The position numbers were made by a program, and so were the translations under genes. Shown piece after piece: positions 25,259 through 64,000 of a DNA stretch of 64,000 nucleotides. Origin of the DNA: an uncultured Gammaproteobacteria bacterium (GTDB taxonomy: Bacteria; Patescibacteriota; Patescibacteriia; Magasanikbacterales; GWA2-37-8). The DNA is taken from the NCBI GenBank assembly GCA_964596525.1, contig CAZQUL010000001.1, positions 1,147,773 to 1,211,772 of the forward strand, written 5' to 3'. The notes beneath the pieces are model-generated. The model was given only the letters and a program-made list of their open reading frames with translations, made no database searches and was not told the origin of the DNA. Numbering within the stretch: the stretch's first letter is position 1; the number at the start of each line of letters is the position of its first letter.

Positions 25259-27553
25259 TCATCTTTTTTCCGGTGGGACACGTTCGTCAAATCCTTTCCA
25301 CCACAAGCGTCCCTGTTCAAGGCGATCACGTCGGAATTGATAAAGTCGTAAAAGTTCGCATGATGTTATAGGGGCGGTAGAAGAAACGGTTAAATTTTCC
25401 GGGCATCGCAGAGTATCAGGCACTTCGTAGGTGATGCTACGCGCACCGTTTGGCAGCGCTTCGTTGCTGTATAAACCGAGTTCATGCATACCAATAATAT
25501 TGGGGTATTTCGCCCGATCATCAAACAGCGAATGGCCCTCAAACGAATGTGGCGTATTGATACCGAGAAGATGGAGGATCGTCGGCGTAAAATCGAGTCC
25601 TGACGACCAGATCGAAACATCTTTAGGCAGTACCGAATCCGGCACGTACATAAGGAAAACATTTTCGTCGTAGAAGGAAAGATTTGGCTCATTAGGGAAG
25701 AGATCTTTGGTGATAGCACCGGGGAAGATGGCATGGTCCCCAACCGCTATGAGGATAGTATTGGAAGCAAACGGGCTCGCCTTAAAGGTTTTCCAGAAAG
25801 ATAGGAGCGCATTATCGGTAGTGTGGAATGAATTGAGAACTGGTTGTTTACCATCACCATACGGCACAGCGTCTTGCGCCAATGTGAAGGGTGGGTGCGT
25901 ATCAACCGTAGAAAGCGTGATGAAAAACGGCGATGACGTACGATATTCGGTCTGCATGAGACGGTTTAAAAACGGCAGCATCTGATGATCGGAAAAGCCC
26001 CAGGACTGCGGTTTTTCAGGGATATGTTTAGCCAGTTCGTCGGTACCAAAAATATGCTCTACCCCCATGCTCGCGAAAATACCGTCTTTGTGGGCAAAGG
26101 TTTTATCGACCGCGGTGATATACGCGGTATACCCATACCCAAAACGGCGGAGCACTTCCGGCAAACACAGGAGTTTGTGGCGCTGGAGTTTACGATCGTT
26201 CTGGATTTCATCATGTCCGGTAGGTGGCAAGAACGAACACAGCTGTGACAAAATACCCGTAATGGTGGGAGTGGAAGCGTTATGGTATTTGCGGATAATC
26301 GTGGTATCTGGATCGGCCGCCATAGCATTAAGGCCGGGCGTTACGTCTTTAAACCGTTCATTGTAGGGCCCGGTAAGTCGCGCCGAATAGGATTCGAGAA
26401 AAAGAACGACGATGTTGGGTGGGTTTTCCTGCAACCGATCGGCCAAAAGCGCTGTTGTGGTGGAAAAAACCTGCGGGTGATACGACAGGTAAAAATCATC
26501 GACATTGTAGAAGATGCCAAAGCGACGGAGTTTTTCTTCTAACTCTTTGGGGAGAGTGACAGTTTTTACTGTACCGAAATAGCGGTTATAGAACGAACGT
26601 ACAATCGCATGCTCAGGCGTATTCTTGATCGAGGAAAGGCCGGTGAGCGACAGCACGGCCATAAGGAGAATCGCGAACGAATACCAGACCGAATACCGCC
26701 GCGGAACTTGGGTGTGGACGCGTAACCCTTGGCGCACCACCATAACGAATGCCGCCCCTACCAGAATAACCGCCGCGGTCATAAAATACGTAAACGAGTT
26801 AAGTAGCACACCGCGCGAACCTTCGGCATGATCGACAGAAACGGGACTCAGATAGAGGCCTGAAAAATAAAGAATGCCAATGTTAAACGCCCAGGCGATG
26901 AGCGCTCCGCCAAAAAAAACGAGCCACGCGAGAGCGGCAACGGAACGAAACCAAGAGCGCCCAGACCAGGCGATGAGCATTGCCACCGCCCATAGACCAA
27001 GCCAAAAAAAGGTCATGGCGAGCGATCGGAACAAGACGATGTTGAAAAACTTGATGTTCGCATCGAGAATATACCAGCGGTACGCGGAATACTGCAGGAG
27101 GGCCTGCAACAAGAAGATGCTGTACGTAAACAAAAAAGTGGAACGATGCACCGCGAGCCACGGCGCAGCCGCAGGATGTTTGGCCAAAATCCGCCCAGCC
27201 ACGAAAAAGAAAAAAGGCAACCAGAGCGCTACATATACAAGGGTTGCAAGCTCGTTGCGCGAGAAAAAAATAAGAAACAGGAGCGAGCCGGCAGCATAGA
27301 GCTTATCAAGTTCGGGAGTAAGAACCGTATACCAGAACGGATGACGACGTGTGCGCCGCATAATTTGAACTGCGATGCGCGAAAAAATAAGATACCCCGC
27401 CAATGCAACAATCGTGAGCGCAGCAACTTTACCCGAAAATTGAACCATGTCGCGACGGCTAAAATGGTACCATCCCCAACTTACTGCGACGATACAACTG
27501 GCCAGAGTACAATACAAAGCGGCCATCAAACGATCACGGCTGAAAAAAGTCAT
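25259..27553 (-). CDS. LtaS/MdoB-like sulfatase-family membrane enzyme (lipoteichoic acid synthase-like phosphoglycerol transferase)
   Basis: Multi-TM N-terminus plus an extracellular alkaline-phosphatase/sulfatase domain (VVLFLESYSARL); 764 aa. Confidence 0.65.
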   Translation of the reverse strand: MTFFSRDRLMAALYCTLASCIVAVSWGWYHFSRRDMVQFSGKVAALTIVALAGYLIFSRIAVQIMRRTRRHPFWYTVLTPELDKLYAAGSLLFLIFFSRNELATLVYVALWLPFFFFVAGRILAKHPAAAPWLAVHRSTFLFTYSIFLLQALLQYSAYRWYILDANIKFFNIVLFRSLAMTFFWLGLWAVAMLIAWSGRSWFRSVAALAWLVFFGGALIAWAFNIGILYFSGLYLSPVSVDHAEGSRGVLLNSFTYFMTAAVILVGAAFVMVVRQGLRVHTQVPRRYSVWYSFAILLMAVLSLTGLSSIKNTPEHAIVRSFYNRYFGTVKTVTLPKELEEKLRRFGIFYNVDDFYLSYHPQVFSTTTALLADRLQENPPNIVVLFLESYSARLTGPYNERFKDVTPGLNAMAADPDTTIIRKYHNASTPTITGILSQLCSFLPPTGHDEIQNDRKLQRHKLLCLPEVLRRFGYGYTAYITAVDKTFAHKDGIFASMGVEHIFGTDELAKHIPEKPQSWGFSDHQMLPFLNRLMQTEYRTSSPFFITLSTVDTHPPFTLAQDAVPYGDGKQPVLNSFHTTDNALLSFWKTFKASPFASNTILIAVGDHAIFPGAITKDLFPNEPNLSFYDENVFLMYVPDSVLPKDVSIWSSGLDFTPTILHLLGINTPHSFEGHSLFDDRAKYPNIIGMHELGLYSNEALPNGARSITYEVPDTLRCPENLTVSSTAPITSCELLRLYQFRRDRLEQGRLWWKGFDERVPPEKR

Positions 27554-53108: not shown

Positions 53109-53681
53109 TTAACTGCGCAAACTAACCTCGTAAGCGATGTGTTGGAGTTTGGCGAGCGACTGTTTGGCCTGGTCGAACTTCTGGCGGTTGTAGCCGGTGA
53201 GGTCCATGGTAATCATCTCCCCCACGATATCCTCGGCGATCTTAAAGCAGCGCTCTGGTTCGGCAAAATTGCGCTCCGTAGCGGATTTGATGGCATACCG
53301 CAAAAGTTCGCCCGGCACATCAGCAAGCCCGCCGATGAAAACGTCGGGATCAACCATCACATCATCAATTGGACCGATTTTCTCGCCCTCAAGGCATTGC
53401 TTGAAGAGGATGGCCTCTACATATTCTTCGAGCGCGGCTTTGTAGGAACCTTCATCAAAAACACGCGGATCTTTGGTGTGTTTTTTAATGAGATCGCGCA
53501 ATAGTTCACGCGCCTCGCTCAAACTCTTGACTGCCTCAGCCTTCTCGTCGCGCTGGAGAGCGAAAATCGCCCGCTTGGCCCGATGCTGCACGTCACCGCA
53601 GACTTTAATGACTTCACGCCGTTTTTCGGCATACGACAGCAAATTTTGGCGAATTTTCTTGAAATAGGATTTATCCAGCAT
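53109..53681 (-). CDS. Translin-family-like all-alpha protein
   Basis: RREVIKVCGDVQHRAKRAIFALQR and YKAALEEYVEAILF resemble translin helices. Confidence 0.4.
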   Translation of the reverse strand: MLDKSYFKKIRQNLLSYAEKRREVIKVCGDVQHRAKRAIFALQRDEKAEAVKSLSEARELLRDLIKKHTKDPRVFDEGSYKAALEEYVEAILFKQCLEGEKIGPIDDVMVDPDVFIGGLADVPGELLRYAIKSATERNFAEPERCFKIAEDIVGEMITMDLTGYNRQKFDQAKQSLAKLQHIAYEVSLRS

Positions 53682-53792: not shown

Positions 53793-53865
53793 GGGTCGGT
53801 AGCTCAGCCGGTAGAGCAGCTCCCTTTTAAGGAGACGGTCCCGGGTTCGATCCCCGGCCGACCCA
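53793..53865 (+). tRNA. tRNA-Lys (anticodon UUU)
   Basis: Acceptor gggtcgg/ccgaccc, anticodon loop cuUUUaa, T-loop ttcgatc. Confidence 0.85.
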
Positions 53866-53880
53866 CACAGAGAAACAAAA

Positions 53881-53993: not shown

Positions 53994-54443
53994 ATGAACT
54001 GCATCTTCTGCAAAATCGTCAAAGGAGAAGCCCTTTGCCACAAAATCTGGGAAGACGAGAAACACCTCGCTTTTCTTTCAATTTTCCCTAACACCGAGGG
54101 ATTTTCTGTGGTTATTACAAAAGAACACTATCCGTCCTACGCCTTTGATTTACCCGAAGAAGTACTACTTGAATTAGTAAAAGCCGCTGAGAAAACTGCT
54201 CAGCTTCTAGATTCAAAACTGGAAGACGTAGGACGTACCGGACTGATCTTTGAGGGTTTCGGGGTAGACCATGTCCATGCCAAACTCTTCCCTATGCACG
54301 GCACAAAAATGGCAGAATGGAAACCGGTGAAATCCAATGTCGATAAATATTTCGATACCTACGAAGGCTACATCTCTTCTCATGATTACAAACGCGGGGA
54401 CGATACAAAACTTGCTGAGTTGGCGAAAAAGATTCGAGAATAA
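53994..54443 (+). CDS. HIT-family (histidine triad) hydrolase
   Basis: CIFCKI...GE N-terminus; HVHAKLFP histidine triad variant. Confidence 0.7.
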   Translation: MNCIFCKIVKGEALCHKIWEDEKHLAFLSIFPNTEGFSVVITKEHYPSYAFDLPEEVLLELVKAAEKTAQLLDSKLEDVGRTGLIFEGFGVDHVHAKLFPMHGTKMAEWKPVKSNVDKYFDTYEGYISSHDYKRGDDTKLAELAKKIRE

Positions 54444-54611
54444 TCGCGCTATTAGTCTAGCAAAGGAAACGGAAATTACTGTATATCTTTGAAGGTTTGC
54501 CAAGCGTCAAGATATCCTTGGATTATTTTATTGACAACAAGAAACGCCCAAACTATCTTAATGATCGGATTGCCAAATCAACCACGGCAATTCTGAGAAA
54601 AGGAGCCTGTC

Positions 54612-54800
54612 ATGACAGGAAAGTCCGTGCCCGAAGAGGGCGTCGTCACGCTGTGCGGTACGCAGGGATGCTGCCCCACGGTCGATTTCACCGAGCCCGG
54701 CAAGGTCATCATCAAGGATGACCATGGCGGCCGCGTCGAGCTGAACGCGGGCGAGTGGAACGATCTGAAGGGCAAGTTCTCCGCGACCGGCAAGCGCTGA
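54612..54800 (+). CDS. Small Cys-containing peptide (62 aa); candidate radical-SAM substrate or RiPP precursor
   Basis: SD AAGGAG 6 nt upstream; core TLCGTQGCCPTVDF; sits immediately 5' of the rSAM/SPASM gene. Confidence 0.5.
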   Translation: MTGKSVPEEGVVTLCGTQGCCPTVDFTEPGKVIIKDDHGGRVELNAGEWNDLKGKFSATGKR

Positions 54801-54889
54801 TCCAACCGCGCCTTCGGGCGCATCACCGGCTCCTAGCCACTACGCGTGGTTAGGAGCCATTTCATTTACGTGGAATTCGGAGGGCTCAC

Positions 54890-56224
54890 ATGTGGTCAAA
54901 ATATCTGTGCACGAAGGAACGTAATGGGATCGTGGCCGTATTCCACGAGCTGCATCCTGATCCGCTCTTTTTTCCCAAAGGTGAATGGGAGCGTCTAAAG
55001 CTAGGGAAAAATCTTGAAAACGAACAGGGGTTTGACGCCCTGCGCGACGCTAAGCTCCTTATCGTAGGACCGGAAGTGGATGAGGAGGAGTTCGCGACTA
55101 CAGAACGTCATCTTGAGCGTAAGCTCAGCCAACCAACCATCCTGTATCTTATGACCGCCCAAGGCTGCAACATGGTCTGCGGATACTGCCCGGTTCCCGG
55201 CTTGGCAAAAAAATACGGCGCATCATTGCTATCGGCGTCGGATGCCGTAGCGGGAATCAACCTGTGGCTAGAGCACCTCAAGGAGAGCTACAATCCTACC
55301 ACATCCTACTTCGTCATTTTCTACGGCGGTGAACCGCTCTTGAATAAACCGACTATCCGCGCATCAATTGATCATATTGCCAGGCTAAGAGCGGAAACAA
55401 ACGCCCTGCCGGAGAAGCTCAACCTTATGATCGCCACCAACGGCCTTCTCATGGATCAAGAGATGATCTCGCTCTGCAAAGAGCACGGCATCATGGTGGC
55501 GGTTGGGCTCGACGGTCCGCGTGAAGTACACGATGCGTTGAAAGTCGATACGCAGGGCTTGGGAACATTCGAGCGTATCGTTGCGGTCATCCGAATGCTG
55601 GTAGTGCAGGGGGTTAGAACAGTCGTATCGACGACAATTACCCCTTTCAACATAGGCCGGATGAAGGATTACTCCCGATTCTTTGAGGAGTTGGGCGTTG
55701 AAAAATTCGGCTTCAACTTCCTCAAAGGGAAAGCATTGCTCGAACTCGTTGGTCCTGACGGTCAAAAAAATTACTATCGTCAGGCTGCCCGCGGAGTCAT
55801 CGAACATGCTCGGCTGCAGCACCGAACAGGTTTTGAGTATCAGATGGAGAAGAAAGTGCTGGCTTTCAACCAGCGCGATTTTTTCCCGGTTGACTGCACC
55901 TGTTACGGAAACCAGCTCGTAATCCAACCCGATGGGCAGATTTCCAACTGCCCGTTCTACAAAGCCTGTCTGGGGCAGGTCGGAACAATCACCCCAGAGT
56001 TTCGCATAAGCGAGCAGGAAATTGTACATTCCTGGCGCAAACGACTTCCGCTCTATCATTCGGGTGCAGCCAAGGCTCTCAGCGGCGGGGGCTGCGCATG
56101 GAGTTCGATCGAAGTAAACGGCACACCTTCGACCGAAGATGAATCCAGCCGTATTTTCTCAGAGGAGGCGCTCGATGAACTCATCTGGTCTCGCTACGAT
56201 AAGCTCCGAACAGGCCAAGCCTAA
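54890..56224 (+). CDS. Radical SAM enzyme with a SPASM/twitch C-terminal domain and an N-terminal extension of about 85 aa (RRE-like?); peptide-modifying maturase candidate
   Basis: CNMVCGYCP (CX3CX2C); C-terminal CTCYGN...NCPFYKAC...GGGCAWSS auxiliary-cluster cysteines. Confidence 0.7.
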   Translation: MWSKYLCTKERNGIVAVFHELHPDPLFFPKGEWERLKLGKNLENEQGFDALRDAKLLIVGPEVDEEEFATTERHLERKLSQPTILYLMTAQGCNMVCGYCPVPGLAKKYGASLLSASDAVAGINLWLEHLKESYNPTTSYFVIFYGGEPLLNKPTIRASIDHIARLRAETNALPEKLNLMIATNGLLMDQEMISLCKEHGIMVAVGLDGPREVHDALKVDTQGLGTFERIVAVIRMLVVQGVRTVVSTTITPFNIGRMKDYSRFFEELGVEKFGFNFLKGKALLELVGPDGQKNYYRQAARGVIEHARLQHRTGFEYQMEKKVLAFNQRDFFPVDCTCYGNQLVIQPDGQISNCPFYKACLGQVGTITPEFRISEQEIVHSWRKRLPLYHSGAAKALSGGGCAWSSIEVNGTPSTEDESSRIFSEEALDELIWSRYDKLRTGQA

Positions 56225-57029
56225 GCTCGGGATCATTGGGGGTTCCGGGCTGTGCAGTTTTCCGGAAATTGAAGTGGTCGCACGGGTTAAACCATCGACC
56301 AACTACGGAGAACCTTCCGACGACATCCTGCTCTGCCGTCACGCCGGGGAATACATTGCGCTTCTTCCCCGCCATGGTTCAAAACATGCCTTTGCCCCCC
56401 ATAAGGTTCCTTACAAAGCGAACCTTTCCGCACTCAAAGCGCTCGGCGTGGAATATGTGATTGGCACCTGCATCGTCGGGAGTCTCAAAAAAGAACTACC
56501 ACCGGGCTCGTTGGTAATTCCGGACCAGTTCGTCAATCTTACCTGGGGCCGTGACGATACTGTCGCCGCCGACGCTGGAAGGTTCGTTCATCTGCCGATG
56601 GGGAACCCGTACTGCCAGCACCTGCGGGAAAAAATAACGGAAGCGGCGCGCGAGATCGGACAGGAATTGATAACCGAAGGGACTGTCGCCGTTATCCAGG
56701 GGCCGCGTTTTTCTACCGCAGCGGAAAGCCGCTGGCTCGCGAAGCAAGGCTGGGACGTGGTAAACATGACCCAGTACCCGGAGTGCTACTTCGCCCGCGA
56801 ATTGGGAATGTGCTATGCAGCCATCGCCGCCGTAACTGACTACGACGTGGGGCTCCAAGAGAGCCTGACCATCGATCCGCGTCATATGGAAGGCATTCTC
56901 GAAATCTTCAGGATGGATATCCTGAAGACCAAAGCCCTGCTTCTTTCCTTCATTGAACACCAGGCAGCGAGGCTGGCGTGTGGATGCGCCAACCTGACAC
57001 TTAAGGCGTACTACGAACACAACCTGTGA
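56175..57029 (+). CDS. S-methyl-5'-thioadenosine / 5'-deoxyadenosine phosphorylase (PNP/MTAP family)
   Basis: GIIGGSGL; AVIQGPRFSTAAESRWL...WDVVNMTQYPE; start overlaps the rSAM 3' end by about 50 nt and is uncertain. Confidence 0.7.
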   Translation: MNSSGLATISSEQAKPKLGIIGGSGLCSFPEIEVVARVKPSTNYGEPSDDILLCRHAGEYIALLPRHGSKHAFAPHKVPYKANLSALKALGVEYVIGTCIVGSLKKELPPGSLVIPDQFVNLTWGRDDTVAADAGRFVHLPMGNPYCQHLREKITEAAREIGQELITEGTVAVIQGPRFSTAAESRWLAKQGWDVVNMTQYPECYFARELGMCYAAIAAVTDYDVGLQESLTIDPRHMEGILEIFRMDILKTKALLLSFIEHQAARLACGCANLTLKAYYEHNL

Positions 57030-57151
57030 CCTTGTCCGCTCTTGGCAAGGTCTTTTTTATACTAAGGTTGTCAGATAATCCTTTTTATACTATTCTCAGA
57101 CATAGAGTAACGAACCTTAACAGTAGTAATGGCTGTGGCAGCCAAGGAGTT

Positions 57152-58834
57152 ATGAGCGTGCTTCAAGCAAAAAACATCGAAAAAAGTTACGGCCCTTTGA
57201 ACGTACTCAACGACGTTTCTTTTTCCCTTGCGCGTGGAGCAAAAGTGACCCTGGTAGGCGGGAACGGCAGCGGAAAAACTACCCTTCTACGTATTCTTGC
57301 TGGGCTGGAAACACCCGATCATGGGACGGTTGGATTTGCTGAAGGAAGCTGCCTTGGTTACCTGCCTCAAGATACCAGCCTCACCACGGATGAATCCATT
57401 ACCACGTATGTGCGAGCCGCTACGGGCATCGAAAAACTGGAGCATGAAATGGAGCGCCTGGCAGACCAGCTCGATAATCCTGAAAAGATTAGTCTTTATG
57501 GGAGTGTCCAGGACCGCTATGCGCATCTTGGCGGTTATGATTTTGACCGTAAACTCAAAGTGATGCTTGATGGTTTCGCCATGGGGACGGTTGAGCCGAG
57601 CCAATCTGTAGGCGAGCTGAGCAGTGGGCAAAAAACAAAGGTAGCCTTGATAGCGATACTGCTCAAAGGTGTCGATATCTTGCTCCTTGATGAACCGACT
57701 AACAATCTTGACCTGCCCGCCCTTATTTGGCTGGAAGATTTTCTCAAAAAGTCTCCAGCCGCCTGCTTGATCGTTTCGCACGACCGCCGTTTCCTCGACC
57801 GGATCGCCCGCAAAACACTTATTCTTGATACCAGGACCCACACTCTTAGCACCCATACCGGAACGTACTCCGAATACGTAGCTTCCGTTGCAAAGAATAC
57901 CATCCGCCAGCATGAGGAGTATGAGCAGCAGCAAAAGGAGATTGGACGTCTCGAACATCAGGCTCGCGAAAAGCGCTCTGCATCGGCGCGCGGCGAGCGT
58001 TTTGCCGGGAGCGATAACGACAAGTTTCTCCGCGGATTCAACCGTGATCGCGCCGGAGCGTCGGCCCATGTCGCCAAAACAATAGAGAAAAGGATCGAAC
58101 GGATCGAAAAGGTGGAAAAGCCGTTCGAGCGCGAGCCTCTTAAGATCCAGCTGACTGCCGAAAAGAATCCTGGCGTACGCGACATCGAACTCGTCAATGT
58201 CCTCGCTGGATACCAAAACGGATTCAGGATCGGCCCTCTTTCGCTCTCCATAAGCTACGCAGAGCGCATCGCTATTCTTGGTCTTAACGGGAGTGGTAAA
58301 TCCACGCTTCTGAAGGCGCTTACCGGCGAACTGTCGCCGCTCGGTGGACAGGTGGATATTGGTTCGGGTATTCGCTTGGGCAATCTCATGCAGGAGCACC
58401 AAAACCTGGACCGAGAGAAACGGCCGATTGACGCAGTGGTTGAAAAAACCAGCTTGAGCGAACAACTCGCTCGCGCCCAGCTGGCAAAATTCGGTCTCAG
58501 CGACAACCAGGCAACTTCTCCCATCAGCGCTTTAAGCCCCGGCTCTCGAGCACGCCTCATCCTTTCGGTCTTCGCGGCGCAGTCAGTCAATGCCCTTATC
58601 CTCGATGAGCCAACCAACCACCTGGATCTGGAGGCTCTAGAAGCGCTCGAAGAGGCCTTGGAAACGTATGCTGGCACCGTGATTCTTGTGTCGCACGACC
58701 GGGATTTCCTTGAAAAAACCGCCTTGAACGCCACCTACCTCCTTGAGGGCGGTGCGCTGACACGGATTCCAGACTATAAAGCCTATATCCGGGAGGCCGA
58801 AGAAAAAGCCCGGAAACTTCTCAAGCTCCTCTAA
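57152..58834 (+). CDS. ABC-F family ATPase (two tandem ABC domains, no TMD)
   Basis: Two Walker A sites (GGNGSGKTTL, GLNGSGKSTL), two signature motifs, an inter-domain linker. Confidence 0.8.
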   Translation: MSVLQAKNIEKSYGPLNVLNDVSFSLARGAKVTLVGGNGSGKTTLLRILAGLETPDHGTVGFAEGSCLGYLPQDTSLTTDESITTYVRAATGIEKLEHEMERLADQLDNPEKISLYGSVQDRYAHLGGYDFDRKLKVMLDGFAMGTVEPSQSVGELSSGQKTKVALIAILLKGVDILLLDEPTNNLDLPALIWLEDFLKKSPAACLIVSHDRRFLDRIARKTLILDTRTHTLSTHTGTYSEYVASVAKNTIRQHEEYEQQQKEIGRLEHQAREKRSASARGERFAGSDNDKFLRGFNRDRAGASAHVAKTIEKRIERIEKVEKPFEREPLKIQLTAEKNPGVRDIELVNVLAGYQNGFRIGPLSLSISYAERIAILGLNGSGKSTLLKALTGELSPLGGQVDIGSGIRLGNLMQEHQNLDREKRPIDAVVEKTSLSEQLARAQLAKFGLSDNQATSPISALSPGSRARLILSVFAAQSVNALILDEPTNHLDLEALEALEEALETYAGTVILVSHDRDFLEKTALNATYLLEGGALTRIPDYKAYIREAEEKARKLLKLL

Positions 58835-58885: not shown

Positions 58886-59524
58886 ATGCCCACTCCCCGC
58901 GAGCTTGCCCATACCCTCAACAAGTCCCTGATGATCTGGCTAAAAGGAACCGGCCGTCTTGTCATCGGACTCGATGGTTACGCCGGATCAGGCAAAACGA
59001 CGTTAGCGGATGAAATTGAAAAAATTAACCCACACGTCCTCGTTATCCATCTCGACGATTTCATCAGGCACTGGAAAGTGAGAAAAAACTTGGTCGAAGC
59101 ATCCTCAGACCCAGCTATTCTTTTTGAGCACTCGTGGTATCGCTATGAAGAATTGGAAAAACTGATAGCAGCATTTCGACATGGCGAGAAAAATTTTTTA
59201 ACCCAGACGTACGATTTCGAGAAAAATGACTTCGGACCAGCCAAAGAGTTCGATCTTTCCAAAACAATACTGCTTGTCGAAGGAATATTTTTATTCAGCC
59301 ATAGAAATCCTCTGGGAAATCTCTGGGACAAACGGGTCTACATCGAACTTGATTTTACAGAAGCGGACAAACAGCGCATTGCTCGCGAACAAGAGAGATG
59401 GGGCGCGGCCTACGTACCCGAAGATCATCCGGATAACTGGACTAAATACTTTAAAAAGCACTATCGGAAGTATTGGGAAAATACCCAGCCCCAAAAATTT
59501 GCCGACCTCGTTTTAAAGAGGTAA
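58886..59524 (+). CDS. P-loop nucleoside/nucleotide kinase (uridine kinase/PRK-like)
   Basis: GLDGYAGSGKTTLA P-loop; LLVEGIFLF. Confidence 0.55.
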   Translation: MPTPRELAHTLNKSLMIWLKGTGRLVIGLDGYAGSGKTTLADEIEKINPHVLVIHLDDFIRHWKVRKNLVEASSDPAILFEHSWYRYEELEKLIAAFRHGEKNFLTQTYDFEKNDFGPAKEFDLSKTILLVEGIFLFSHRNPLGNLWDKRVYIELDFTEADKQRIAREQERWGAAYVPEDHPDNWTKYFKKHYRKYWENTQPQKFADLVLKR

Positions 59525-59893
59525 AATCCGATCTAAGAACTGATAGATTTTAATCGACGTGTTATACTATTTCTATTCATTATCCACCCTTTTCGTCGTC
59601 AGTTTTTTGATCAAAAAAGCGACAGAAAAAACAGTGCGGGAAATGGTTGTAGATTCCGAAATCCTTCATGCTTGATCGAAAATACTGCTCTTGATGAGCA
59701 GTATTTTTGTATGTTTATCACAACCCTCCTCGATCGTTTTTGCGATCATGGATAGAAAACACATGGGTGAGATTCTTTATCGCACCTCAATAGCCATCTA
59801 AATGGATACTAAGGTTTGAAGGGCATGTCGAGCGATCGGAAAGATCGTGACTTGTAGCTTTGCCCTGGAAGCGTGGATTGAAAACCGAACTAT

Positions 59894-61786
59894 TCAGACC
59901 GTCGTGCGTTCCTGGGGATCGATCCAACCCAGGTTTTTCAGCTCATCCTCGTTGAGGTCGCTGTACTCGGTCACGATAGTAGCTCGCGGATCCGGGAAGT
60001 AGCTCGGCCAGGCAGGCACTTCGCCACCGAGCTGACGGAGCCGACGCTCTTGGGTTTCCATCGTGCTGAGAAAGGGAAGGAGGGTGTTGTGCACCCAGTG
60101 CTGACGCTGGCGCTTGAGTGCCGCGATGGGCGTGTCCGGGGAGGTCTCGATGATGGAGCGTAGCTGACCGCTGTGCTCGGCGAGCATGACGGCCAGGGTG
60201 GTTTGGTCGGCTTGGCAGGCCGCAAAGAGACGCCGACGCTCCTCGATACTGCTCGTAGGATCGACCCAGCCGTACTCGCGACTGAGCCGGTCCTTACTGA
60301 CAGACCAGGGAGCCTTGTTGAGGAGCAGGTCAGATCCACTGATCAGCATGGCTGGCCAGATTGGTACGCTTATTCCATCGCGCATCATAGTTTCCTCACA
60401 GCTCACCAGGTTGATACGACACTTCTCACCATCGTCCAACCAGCGTTCGTGCAGCAGGCTCTCGATCTGGCGATGGGTGCGGCAGATGCCGTTCATGTCG
60501 GGGCGGGTAAGCTCACAGATCATGCGATCGAGGTTTAGGCGAGCCTCAACCAACTTCTGACGGGCGTCAAAGTGCTGTGCCAGCCGCAGCCGGACCTCGA
60601 TATTCAGGCCATATGTGTCGGGGTTGTAGCCTTCGAGGTCGATGTTATTCCTGGCCTCGCGGTGTCCTGCACGGCCCTGTTGCCCGCGGTTGCAGTACTG
60701 TTTCCAGTCATGGGGCGCAAAGCGCTTGCCACCGATGATGATGATCGTAAAGACCAGCATGATCCCGCGGCAGAGCCACTTTACGCACCAGGCAGGGGTC
60801 CAGATGGTGTCGGTCATTTCCACCATCTTGGAGAAACGATGCAGAGCGCCGCGAGAAACCTGCCAGCTTCCGCCACCGTACTTAGCGGCGAGTTCGTCGC
60901 GGCCAGCAGTGGTTTGCGAGAGCGCGGCAATTCGATCTAAGAAGACCTCCTTGTCCTTGCGGATCTGGTCGAGACGCTTCTGGAGCGCCTGCCGATTATC
61001 CTTCTGTTTGGCATCACGAAGAGCGGTGAGACGCTCTACTTCCTGGGCAGTCTTGGCGTCAAAGGGTTCAATGGTGGCAGCCAGGTTTTCTGCCTGCTCG
61101 GCCATCATTTTCGCGGCGGGCCCGTTACCGTAGTGACCGGAAATCTTTCCGGCAGCTTCGGTGCGGGCATCGCTGCGTACCTTGTCCACCTCCTTCACCA
61201 CGGCATCACGCTGCGCTTTGCGCTCGGCGACGTAGCGATCAAGATCGCCCTGCGCCTTCGCGGCCTCTGTGACGGCGTTCTCTCCGAGCTCCTTCTGAGC
61301 AGCGATGAGGAGTTGGTCGCACTTCTTCTCCTCGGTCTCGTTCGCCATCTGCACGATCTTGTCGACGTTGGCCTTCTCCTCAGCAACGATGCTTTTTTCG
61401 ATGTCTGGAGCAAACCAGGACACCTCGACAGCAACCGACGTGAGGCCCCAGCCGACGAAGAGAGCAAACAACAGGCGGAACACGTCGCCTTGGGTCGTGG
61501 AGGTAGACGTGTCCTGGGTGATGTACATGATCTCAAAGACCAAGATCACCGTCGAGAATATGAGTCCCAGAAACCGGGACCATATCCAGCCCAGCTGATC
61601 GTTCGCGGCGTACGTGAAGCCCCAGGTGTTACCCCAGGCCCACACATCCACGAACCACTGCATGCTGAGGATGAGAGAGAAGAAGATGATGTAGAGCGCA
61701 ACCCCTTTGGTGTAGAGAGGCGTGGCATCGCCATACTTCTTCATGCCCGGTAGCACAGGGATCCTGCTCAATTGACGAGCTTCCAT
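59894..61786 (-). CDS. Large membrane protein: 3 TM, about 200-aa coiled coil, TM, about 290-aa C-terminal domain; hypothetical (GC-rich)
   Basis: Start at M24 with AAAGGGGAG SD; architecture read from the sequence; no confident family. Confidence 0.5.
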   Translation of the reverse strand: MEARQLSRIPVLPGMKKYGDATPLYTKGVALYIIFFSLILSMQWFVDVWAWGNTWGFTYAANDQLGWIWSRFLGLIFSTVILVFEIMYITQDTSTSTTQGDVFRLLFALFVGWGLTSVAVEVSWFAPDIEKSIVAEEKANVDKIVQMANETEEKKCDQLLIAAQKELGENAVTEAAKAQGDLDRYVAERKAQRDAVVKEVDKVRSDARTEAAGKISGHYGNGPAAKMMAEQAENLAATIEPFDAKTAQEVERLTALRDAKQKDNRQALQKRLDQIRKDKEVFLDRIAALSQTTAGRDELAAKYGGGSWQVSRGALHRFSKMVEMTDTIWTPAWCVKWLCRGIMLVFTIIIIGGKRFAPHDWKQYCNRGQQGRAGHREARNNIDLEGYNPDTYGLNIEVRLRLAQHFDARQKLVEARLNLDRMICELTRPDMNGICRTHRQIESLLHERWLDDGEKCRINLVSCEETMMRDGISVPIWPAMLISGSDLLLNKAPWSVSKDRLSREYGWVDPTSSIEERRRLFAACQADQTTLAVMLAEHSGQLRSIIETSPDTPIAALKRQRQHWVHNTLLPFLSTMETQERRLRQLGGEVPAWPSYFPDPRATIVTEYSDLNEDELKNLGWIDPQERTTV

Positions 61787-63997: not shown

Positions 63998-64000
63998 TTC

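Follow-up and report, generated by a model that had tools for sequence, protein, structure and literature searches.

A three-gene unit conserved in Patescibacteria pairs a radical S-adenosylmethionine enzyme with a small cysteine-containing protein as its candidate substrate

Is a short cysteine-containing open reading frame (ORF) in front of a radical S-adenosylmethionine (rSAM) enzyme gene the precursor of a peptide antibiotic, or does it belong to an older and more general system? This question is raised by a stretch of 64,000 nucleotides (contig CAZQUL010000001.1, positions 1,147,773 to 1,211,772; hereafter the window), in which three consecutive genes code for a 62-residue protein with three cysteines, an rSAM enzyme, and a nucleoside phosphorylase of the MTAP/MtnP family. 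An earlier note on this DNA had read them as the precursor peptide and maturase of a peptide made on the ribosome and modified after translation (RiPP), together with a by-product scavenger, possibly acquired horizontally at a neighboring tRNA gene. Our analysis leans, by a modest balance, toward an enzyme-substrate maturation pair within a protein-maturation unit of three genes conserved in Patescibacteria.

Conservation of the three-gene unit

The small-protein gene, which encodes the presumed substrate, occupies positions 54612-54800 of the plus strand (a 62-residue, three-cysteine ORF that begins MTGKSVPEEGVVTLCGTQGCCPTVDF...). As the earlier note had described, it has a good Shine-Dalgarno sequence, AAGGAG, 7 nt 5' of its ATG, and lies upstream of the rSAM gene, from which an 89-nt spacer separates it. 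The rSAM gene (54890-56224, plus strand) is a 444-residue ORF with a Pfam Radical_SAM domain, and its 3' end overlaps the gene of a 284-residue MTAP/MtnP-family phosphorylase (56175-57029, plus strand; Pfam PNP_UDP_1, E 6e-37). The small-protein gene and the rSAM gene each occur once in the window.

A scan of one genome per species yielded 21 loci, nearly all labeled as Patescibacteria (Zambryskibacteria, Vogelbacteria, Uhrbacteria, Minisyncoccales, Parcubacteria, and others), with a few implausible bin labels. The rSAM gene was followed by the phosphorylase gene in 21/21 loci. The expected co-occurrence of small-protein homologues with the enzyme in other genomes was borne out, the small-protein gene standing directly upstream of the rSAM gene in all 20 loci with upstream DNA (degraded in L014). 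The other upstream neighbors vary among related loci, and the small-protein gene is constant. The same order was found in the divergent contigs L024 (Kerfeldbacteria), L026 (a 64%-GC contig labeled Pseudonocardiaceae), L030, and L056. Since the gene order is common to lineages at 44-64% protein identity, the three-gene unit is an old lineage-wide system of Patescibacteria (candidate phyla radiation, CPR) and not a recent island. Its conserved neighborhood contains neither a protease nor an exporter gene.

A metagenome sample was searched with a degenerate DNA pattern for L-C-G-x3-C-C-P-T, which returned 120 stretches, 53 of them encoding true family members. An rSAM gene was adjacent in 26 of the 37 loci with enough flanking DNA, the flanks being too short in the other 16. 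The 11 loci without an adjacent rSAM gene comprised three spurious, five phage-type, one archaeal, and one frameshifted case, and one in which the rSAM gene lay further off.

The radical SAM enzyme

The rSAM enzyme matched PF04055 with 52 bits (cut-off 29.5) and no other Pfam domain. Its CX3CX2C motif, already recognized in the earlier note, is formed by C93, C97, and C100 and was invariant in 37 homologues. Nearly all of its 25 best NCBIfam matches were SPASM-group peptide or protein maturases, headed by FibroRumin (E 3.5e-35), QhpD, nif11, PapB, and YhhB, and all were far below cut-off. Equivalog cut-offs were reached neither by FibroRumin (TIGR04136, 121.8 versus 400) and QhpD (TIGR03906, 89.1 versus 453) nor by PapB (NF047865, 87.1 versus 340) and the SCIFF maturase (TIGR03974, 63.5 versus 425). 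On these scores the enzyme belongs to no named NCBIfam family, and the HMM comparison that the earlier note had suggested gave no confident housekeeping classification. A profile of the 37 homologues, run against solved structures, gave CteB (5wgg) as best match, followed by TigE, ChlB, the anaerobic sulfatase-maturating enzyme (anSME) as well as SkfB. In agreement, the AlphaFold model (predicted local distance difference test score, pLDDT, 91.8) was aligned by Foldseek over its full length to CteB (E 2.7e-18), then to TigE and anSME.

In this model, residues 1-79 form a separate N-terminal domain with strands at 6-11, 14-19, and 22-29 and helices at 30-37, 45-53, and 61-79; its topology suggests a domain resembling the RiPP precursor recognition element (RRE). 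CteB, SuiB, and SkfB are composed of an RRE, an rSAM core, and a SPASM/Twitch domain (PMC6231123). The data support an equivalent, peptide-maturase-like construction of the window enzyme, with a predicted RRE-like N-terminus, an rSAM core, and a SPASM-derived C-terminus.

The auxiliary-cluster cysteines that the earlier note had placed in the C-terminal part were found only in reduced form: the region is SPASM-derived, but just four of its cysteines (C336, C338, C354, and C402) are conserved in the 37 homologues, sufficient for one auxiliary cluster but not for two. The first SPASM motif is present as C338-x10-G349-x4-C354, the second, CX2CX5CX3C, is reduced to its last cysteine, C402, and the full two-cluster motif (CX9-15GX4C...CX2CX5CX3C...C) did not match. 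In anSME, the last cysteine of CX2CX5CX3C ligates the first auxiliary cluster (Aux I). By analogy, Aux I would have been retained in this lineage and Aux II given up, which corresponds to the Twitch-like condition of SkfB (PMC6231123). The homologue on L026 (L026:5330-6550) retains the whole CX2CX5CX3C (CRPCDAKSICGGGC) and has glycine at the position of C338; loss of Aux II may therefore be in progress within the family, the true taxon of the L026 contig being uncertain.

Some related loci have a second, distant rSAM gene a few kb away: L007:2935-4119 (28% identity) lies upstream, and L056:6820-7333, a B12-binding rSAM gene, downstream. PADLOC returned generic rSAM (pVip, 36 bits) and generic ABC ATPase matches alone and no defense system. 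The earlier note had also considered an anSME acting on the LtaS-like protein encoded at 25259-27553 (minus strand). This candidate was rejected, given that no [CS]-x-[PA]-x-R motif occurs in that ORF and that anSME models score far below cut-off (TIGR03942, 65.6 versus 349).

The 62-residue small protein

A first search found 13 homologues of the small protein, in which 20 positions were invariant, among them T13, L14, C15, Q18-F26 (QGCCPTVDF) with P22, D36, D37, G39, G40, and W49. A profile search of 1.84 billion representatives gave 350 matches at E ≤ 0.001, nearly all of 47-90 residues. In this distant set L14, C15, C21, D36, and D37 were invariant and C20, G39, and G40 nearly so. The 20 invariant positions, the 350 cluster representatives, and the rSAM gene directly downstream in 20/20 informative genome loci identify the ORF as a real gene and not a chance ORF. 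C15, C20, C21, D36, and D37 are kept in all enzyme-linked copies and are candidate reacting residues.

Scans against Pfam, NCBIfam, and PHROGs assigned no family to the small protein, giving only sub-threshold matches to DUF397, T4_y05I_C, and RHH. Its profile had zero matches at E 10 in a sequence search of solved structures, and its model had no counterpart at E ≤ 0.001 in a fold search of viral structures. The AlphaFold model is compact (mean pLDDT 80), with strands at 11-13, 23-25, 31-35, and 41-45 and a helix at 46-60. The cysteine loop joins strands 1 and 2 in this model, the Asp-Asp turn joins strands 3 and 4, and both are predicted to share one sheet edge. As modeled, the product does not look like the classical leader-plus-core precursor of a secreted natural product, and neither a signal peptide nor a double-glycine motif is seen on reading its sequence.

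The predicted topology is that of DUF397 (PF04149; BldB/WhiJ-associated, from actinobacteria). DUF397 consists of four strands and a terminal helix, strand 2 carrying Cys-x-Glu and strand 3 ending in Arg-Asp-Ser (PMC7159879). The small protein has analogous, non-identical motifs at these places: C-P-T-V-[DE] leads into strand 2, and strand 3 closes with [KR]-D-D. The best score of the Pfam model was 16.3 bits (E 0.011; cut-off 24), with 2 of 24 distant members matching in their C-terminal half only. Unlike the small protein with its L-C-G-x3-C-C-P-T-V motif, DUF397 proteins pair with XRE-type regulators and not with rSAM enzymes, and they have been reported only from actinobacteria. The small protein is probably a distant relative of DUF397 and not a member. 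A tandem duplication of the small domain is found in the 116-residue protein P0135 (L058:1135-1485), the second copy of which is without the C...CC motif.

The phosphorylase

Membership of the third gene product in the PNP_UDP_1 superfamily is clear (127.6 bits, cut-off 25.1), and it belongs to the same enzyme family as the MtnP/MTAP proteins of 5'-deoxyadenosine salvage. The earlier note had correctly recognized an MTAP/PNP-family phosphorylase overlapping the 3' end of the rSAM gene; its start had to be corrected to the conserved ATG at 56175 instead of 56139, in agreement with the gene call of the source assembly. From this ATG, the overlap with the rSAM gene measures exactly 50 nt in 17 loci, and 47 nt in an Uhrbacteria locus. 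The conserved overlap supports a tight, translational coupling to the rSAM gene. For known salvage genes, in contrast, no such overlap with a particular rSAM maturase gene has been reported. rSAM enzymes are subject to product inhibition by 5'-deoxyadenosine, a compound that MtnP cleaves in Synechococcus (PMC8102628), which makes the coupling functionally sensible; by analogy, 5'-deoxyadenosine would be the substrate of the window phosphorylase.

Transcription signals

The region's best match to a promoter consensus, TTGACA-17 nt-TATCTT (10/12 positions), lies at 54531-54559 on the plus strand, about 50 nt 5' of the small-protein gene. Two hairpins are predicted on the plus strand of the spacer. 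A small GC hairpin (GCGCC-TTCG-GGCGC, 54808-54821) stands directly 3' of the small-protein stop codon in the predicted spacer fold, and a comparable first hairpin (e.g. CGGTCTCGTGCACGATGCCG) recurs in most related spacers. The second, found by a terminator scan, is a 13-bp hairpin with a T-rich tail (54828-54868), a terminator or attenuator. All 21 of the spacers folded contain a strong hairpin and T-tract, and the consensus structure from an alignment of 16 spacers showed compensatory changes at 8 of the 13 pairs. The hairpin is also kept in sequence (window 54828-54858; spacers of L002-L022; consensus about AGCTCCTAGCCAC...GTGGTTAGGAGCT) in genomes of 34-56% GC. Because this conservation exceeds the needs of an ordinary terminator, the hairpin may be a protein-binding or regulatory RNA element. 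In Rfam, tRNAs alone reached the gathering threshold, and the sole weak match of the spacer was to PhotoRC-I, by chance. Among the classical features of RiPP operons is a terminator, open to read-through, that separates the precursor gene from the enzyme gene; here it would suit a substrate supplied in excess over the enzyme.

The three-gene unit is closed by a terminator-like hairpin on the phosphorylase stop codon (57028-57052, plus strand; 9 bp followed by TTTTTT; terminator scan). With this hairpin and the conserved 50-nt overlap, the three-gene unit proposed in the earlier note is real.

Copies of the small protein without the enzyme

Relatives of the small protein are also found where no enzyme gene is near. 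Within phage head modules, Mu-F and HK97 gp10-like genes precede them (L028:4649-4828, L029:3791-3970, and L054:3471-3617), and at L060:4001-4183 a relative follows a Gp23-type capsid gene without a nearby rSAM gene. About 16 IMG/VR contigs contain such relatives, including L032, L036, L041, L045, L052, and L053. These phage-type copies share the L-C-G...C-C-P-T and D-D motifs and have no rSAM gene nearby; a tblastn search of GenBank phages with a phage-type copy gave no match. Often 8-14 residues precede L-C-G in enzyme-linked copies and 2-5 in some phage copies, a difference that was not relied on as the ranges overlap and start codons are uncertain.

An archaeal stand-alone relative of 54 residues (L114:12320-12484; MKIVTLCGEGSCCPTVEV...IGEEGNLCKL...) has a fourth cysteine, and Glu-Glu replaces Asp-Asp. 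Its neighbors code for ribosomal proteins S13 and S4, a ferritin-like protein, a ZIP transporter, and a Rieske protein. These features hint at an intrinsic, possibly metal-binding, role of the fold.

Comparison with known systems

The solved enzyme closest to the window enzyme, by both sequence profile and fold, is CteB (ScfB) of the clostridial SCIFF system. In both systems an N-terminal domain for peptide binding, a predicted one in the window enzyme, precedes the rSAM core and a SPASM-type C-terminus, and a short cysteine-containing partner is encoded immediately upstream. The SCIFF system is lineage-wide and housekeeping-like and has no exporter or protease, and the same holds for the window unit. 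In contrast to the SCIFF maturase, from whose model cut-off it is far removed, the window enzyme has lost the Aux II ligands; the three cysteines of its partner sit in a domain predicted to be folded, where the SCIFF peptide has six in a short tail, and a phosphorylase gene is coupled to the window enzyme's gene.

QhpD is the second-best NCBIfam model of the window enzyme (E 2.5e-25) and acts on QhpC, the gamma subunit of quinohemoprotein amine dehydrogenase, a modified small protein that stays a protein and is not a cleaved peptide. QhpD joins cysteine sulfur to methylene carbons of Asp or Glu in QhpC; cysteine and aspartate are residue types that are invariant in the window protein. Apart from the low score, the locus differs in that it lacks genes for dehydrogenase subunits, and the small protein neither resembles QhpC nor has a signal peptide. 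Among the ranthipeptide maturases, the model of PapB, which acts on PapA (freyrasin), aligns to residues 85-413 of the window enzyme (E 1.3e-24). PapB cross-links Cys-x3-Asp units, which C21-x3-D25 of the window protein resembles. The score is again far below cut-off, and the window protein has one such motif and no repeats, with position 25 not always acidic in enzyme-linked copies. SkfB, a Twitch-domain sactisynthase, was found by profile and by fold, and consists of an RRE, an rSAM core, and a C-terminal single-auxiliary-cluster domain (PMC6231123), an architecture that the window enzyme would share. Its similarity is weak (E 2e-7, TM-score about 0.5), and in contrast to it the single-cluster state of the window enzyme is clearly a decayed SPASM domain, given the full motif of L026.

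Genomic neighborhood and base composition

Upstream of the unit lie tRNA-Lys (53793-53866) and a HIT-family gene (53994-54443); downstream follow genes for an ABC-F ATPase (57152-58834, plus strand; NCBIfam ribo_prot_ABC_F, 411 bits, cut-off 380) and a PRK/uridine-kinase-family protein (58886-59524, plus strand; Pfam PRK). The ABC-F gene is separated from the phosphorylase gene by the terminator-like hairpin and a promoter-like site and is probably a separate transcript. An ABC-F gene and then a kinase gene follow the unit in most related genome loci; on L026, the ABC-F gene (L026:3091-4764) is upstream and divergent. This linkage may be functional or just old synteny.

The earlier note had suspected horizontal acquisition of the block at tRNA-Lys on account of its higher GC content. 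The block is indeed GC-richer, but mildly so: its GC content of 0.548 falls at the 94th percentile of 2.4-kb windows, about 1 standard deviation above the mean of the window (0.509). More conspicuous are the low-GC HIT gene (0.431) and the high-GC small-protein gene (0.635). No direct repeat of the tRNA 3' end, as expected of an att-like site, was found, and no integrase is encoded among the window ORFs. In 18 related loci no tRNA-Lys stands beside the unit, and most relatives have no adjacent tRNA at all. On these grounds, and as the gene order is shared across Patescibacteria regardless of the tRNA, a tRNA island was rejected.

Larger shifts in composition occur elsewhere: GC rises to 0.57-0.61 at 59750-61750, over a DUF4407 gene (minus strand), and drops to 0.32-0.36 from 61750 to the window end at 64000. 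These shifts are far larger than that of the three-gene block and are better candidates for foreign DNA. A 190-residue Translin-family protein (53109-53681, minus strand; Pfam E 1.6e-19) is encoded next to tRNA-Lys. The Translin family is known mainly from eukaryotes and archaea, so that its presence in a bacterial genome is unusual.

Proposed maturation reaction and alternatives

The following course would account for the features of the unit. The small protein would be transcribed from its own promoter, and the hairpin and T-tract past its stop codon would let a fraction of transcripts reach the rSAM and phosphorylase genes, so that partial read-through would supply the substrate in excess over the enzyme. 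The enzyme would grip the small protein by its RRE-like domain, the likely contact being the conserved segment just before the L-C-G motif. SAM would be cleaved to the 5'-deoxyadenosyl radical, a hydrogen atom abstracted, and an intramolecular cross-link made to at least one of the three invariant cysteines, with the single retained auxiliary cluster (Aux I) serving in substrate binding or oxidation. The most plausible product would be a thioether from cysteine sulfur to an aspartate carbon of the D36-D37 turn; by analogy with QhpD and PapB this specific chemistry is conceivable, and we propose it only tentatively. The phosphorylase would split the inhibitory 5'-deoxyadenosine into adenine and 5-deoxyribose-1-phosphate. 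As the unit has neither a linked protease nor a linked exporter, the product, a stapled mini-protein, would probably remain intracellular.

Several findings weigh against such a maturation pair. The cross-link chemistry is drawn by analogy. For the small protein a compact fold with four strands and one helix is predicted, and its enzyme-free copies keep the cysteines and the acidic pair, the role of which may be intrinsic, e.g. metal binding. Position 25 of the C21-x3-D25 motif is non-acidic in some enzyme-linked copies (L030 and L056). A Pfam scan of residues 1-85 of the enzyme for PqqD/RRE gave no match even at E 10, so that the RRE-like extension of the earlier note has the topology in its favor and no family match. 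The phosphorylase narrowly missed the MTAP equivalog cut-offs (252.5 versus 274.85 for TIGR01694; 271.3 versus 306 for PRK07823), and the phosphorylase, ABC-F, and kinase genes could be merely a syntenic nucleoside-salvage or housekeeping block. The precursor-and-maturase pair of the earlier note is upheld in its conserved linkage and maturase-like enzyme, whereas the predicted fold of the small protein, the missing protease and exporter, and the enzyme-free copies do not fit it.

The small protein could instead be the enzyme's partner, a mini-protein whose three cysteines and aspartate bind a metal or Fe-S cluster and from which the enzyme receives electrons or a cluster, or a chaperone, with the substrate encoded elsewhere. 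The main argument for this is that phage and archaeal copies without the enzyme keep the same C...CC and acidic-pair motif, the archaeal one even with a fourth cysteine; the compact predicted fold and the inferred placement of the cysteine loop and the Asp-Asp turn on one sheet edge would suit it as well. We nevertheless hold it to be unlikely: the N-terminal domain of the enzyme has a peptide-recognition topology, the nearest families all modify an adjacent small peptide, the attenuator-like hairpin suggests a small protein in excess over the enzyme, and no similarity to any ferredoxin or rubredoxin family emerged from profile scans or from the sequence search of solved structures. If the small protein is the substrate, the chemistry might still be another, such as conversion of C20 to formylglycine in the manner of anSME, epimerization, or a carbon-carbon cross-link. 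C20-C21-P22-T23 (in C-C-P-T-V) fits the first four positions, C-x-P-x, of the sulfatase motif, and anSME is among the top structural and sequence matches; single-auxiliary-cluster enzymes moreover include dehydrogenases such as BtrN (PMC6231123). But the arginine of C-x-P-x-R is missing in every member of the small-protein family, as the earlier note had seen by eye for the 62-residue protein, C20 is less conserved than C21, and anSME models score below those of thioether and cyclophane maturases. We also know of no anSME with an N-terminal peptide-binding domain, which counts against formylglycine formation, and judge these other chemistries rather improbable.

That the unit is a cluster for a secreted RiPP antibiotic, acquired horizontally at tRNA-Lys and with the ABC-F protein as self-resistance, is suggested by an ABC-F protein that passes the cut-off for "ribosomal protection-like ABC-F" and adjoins the unit even in changed orientation (L026), and by the slightly GC-rich block. 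Against this stand the synteny over many Patescibacteria lineages at their considerable sequence divergence, which fits vertical inheritance, the absence of an adjacent tRNA in most relatives and of an att-like repeat, integrase, exporter, or leader peptidase nearby, the small protein's want of a signal peptide or double-glycine motif, and the terminator-like site between the ABC-F gene and the unit; this origin is very unlikely. Scarcely credible, finally, is a chance neighborhood of an rSAM enzyme with an unrelated housekeeping substrate and an independent small ORF and phosphorylase. Gene order is generally conserved in these small genomes, and the unrelated ABC-F and kinase genes are co-conserved, yet the linkage persists in changed surroundings (L026 and L030), the small-protein gene is constant where the upstream neighbors vary, and both the spacer hairpin and the 50-nt overlap are conserved.

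An extended form of the maturation-pair reading is speculative and, taken as a whole, improbable. The enzyme might staple a folded DUF397-like mini-protein, or build a cofactor-like site in it, as a lineage-wide CPR system with an intracellular product, e.g. a factor that regulates or binds nucleic acid and is linked to SAM status as well as to the neighboring ABC-F translation factor, and the copies in phage head modules might be enzyme-independent mimics or competitors. If true, no earlier case of a DUF397-type domain modified by an rSAM enzyme would precede it, and a conserved gene set would gain a functional handle.

Biological significance

A literature search found no description of the three-gene module, the small protein falls outside all Pfam, NCBIfam, and PHROGs models, and no equivalog covers the enzyme. 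The unit is a new family within a well-known kind, an rSAM maturase with a cognate cysteine-containing small protein, and its unusual traits have precedents: SkfB for the one auxiliary cluster, QhpC for a protein substrate, and SCIFF for lineage-wide conservation. For the overlapping phosphorylase gene we know of no precedent. An acquired antibiotic cluster, though a tempting first interpretation, is not what the locus supports. For rSAM enzymology it offers a maturase without Aux II, a relative of which retains the complete ligand motif, together with a candidate substrate that is predicted to fold and a putative by-product scavenger built into the unit. It would also extend the DUF397-type fold beyond actinobacteria to phages and archaea and give it a testable biochemical partner. 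Patescibacteria have very small genomes and few biosynthetic genes; because the unit has been kept across many of their lineages despite this, it likely matters to their biology.

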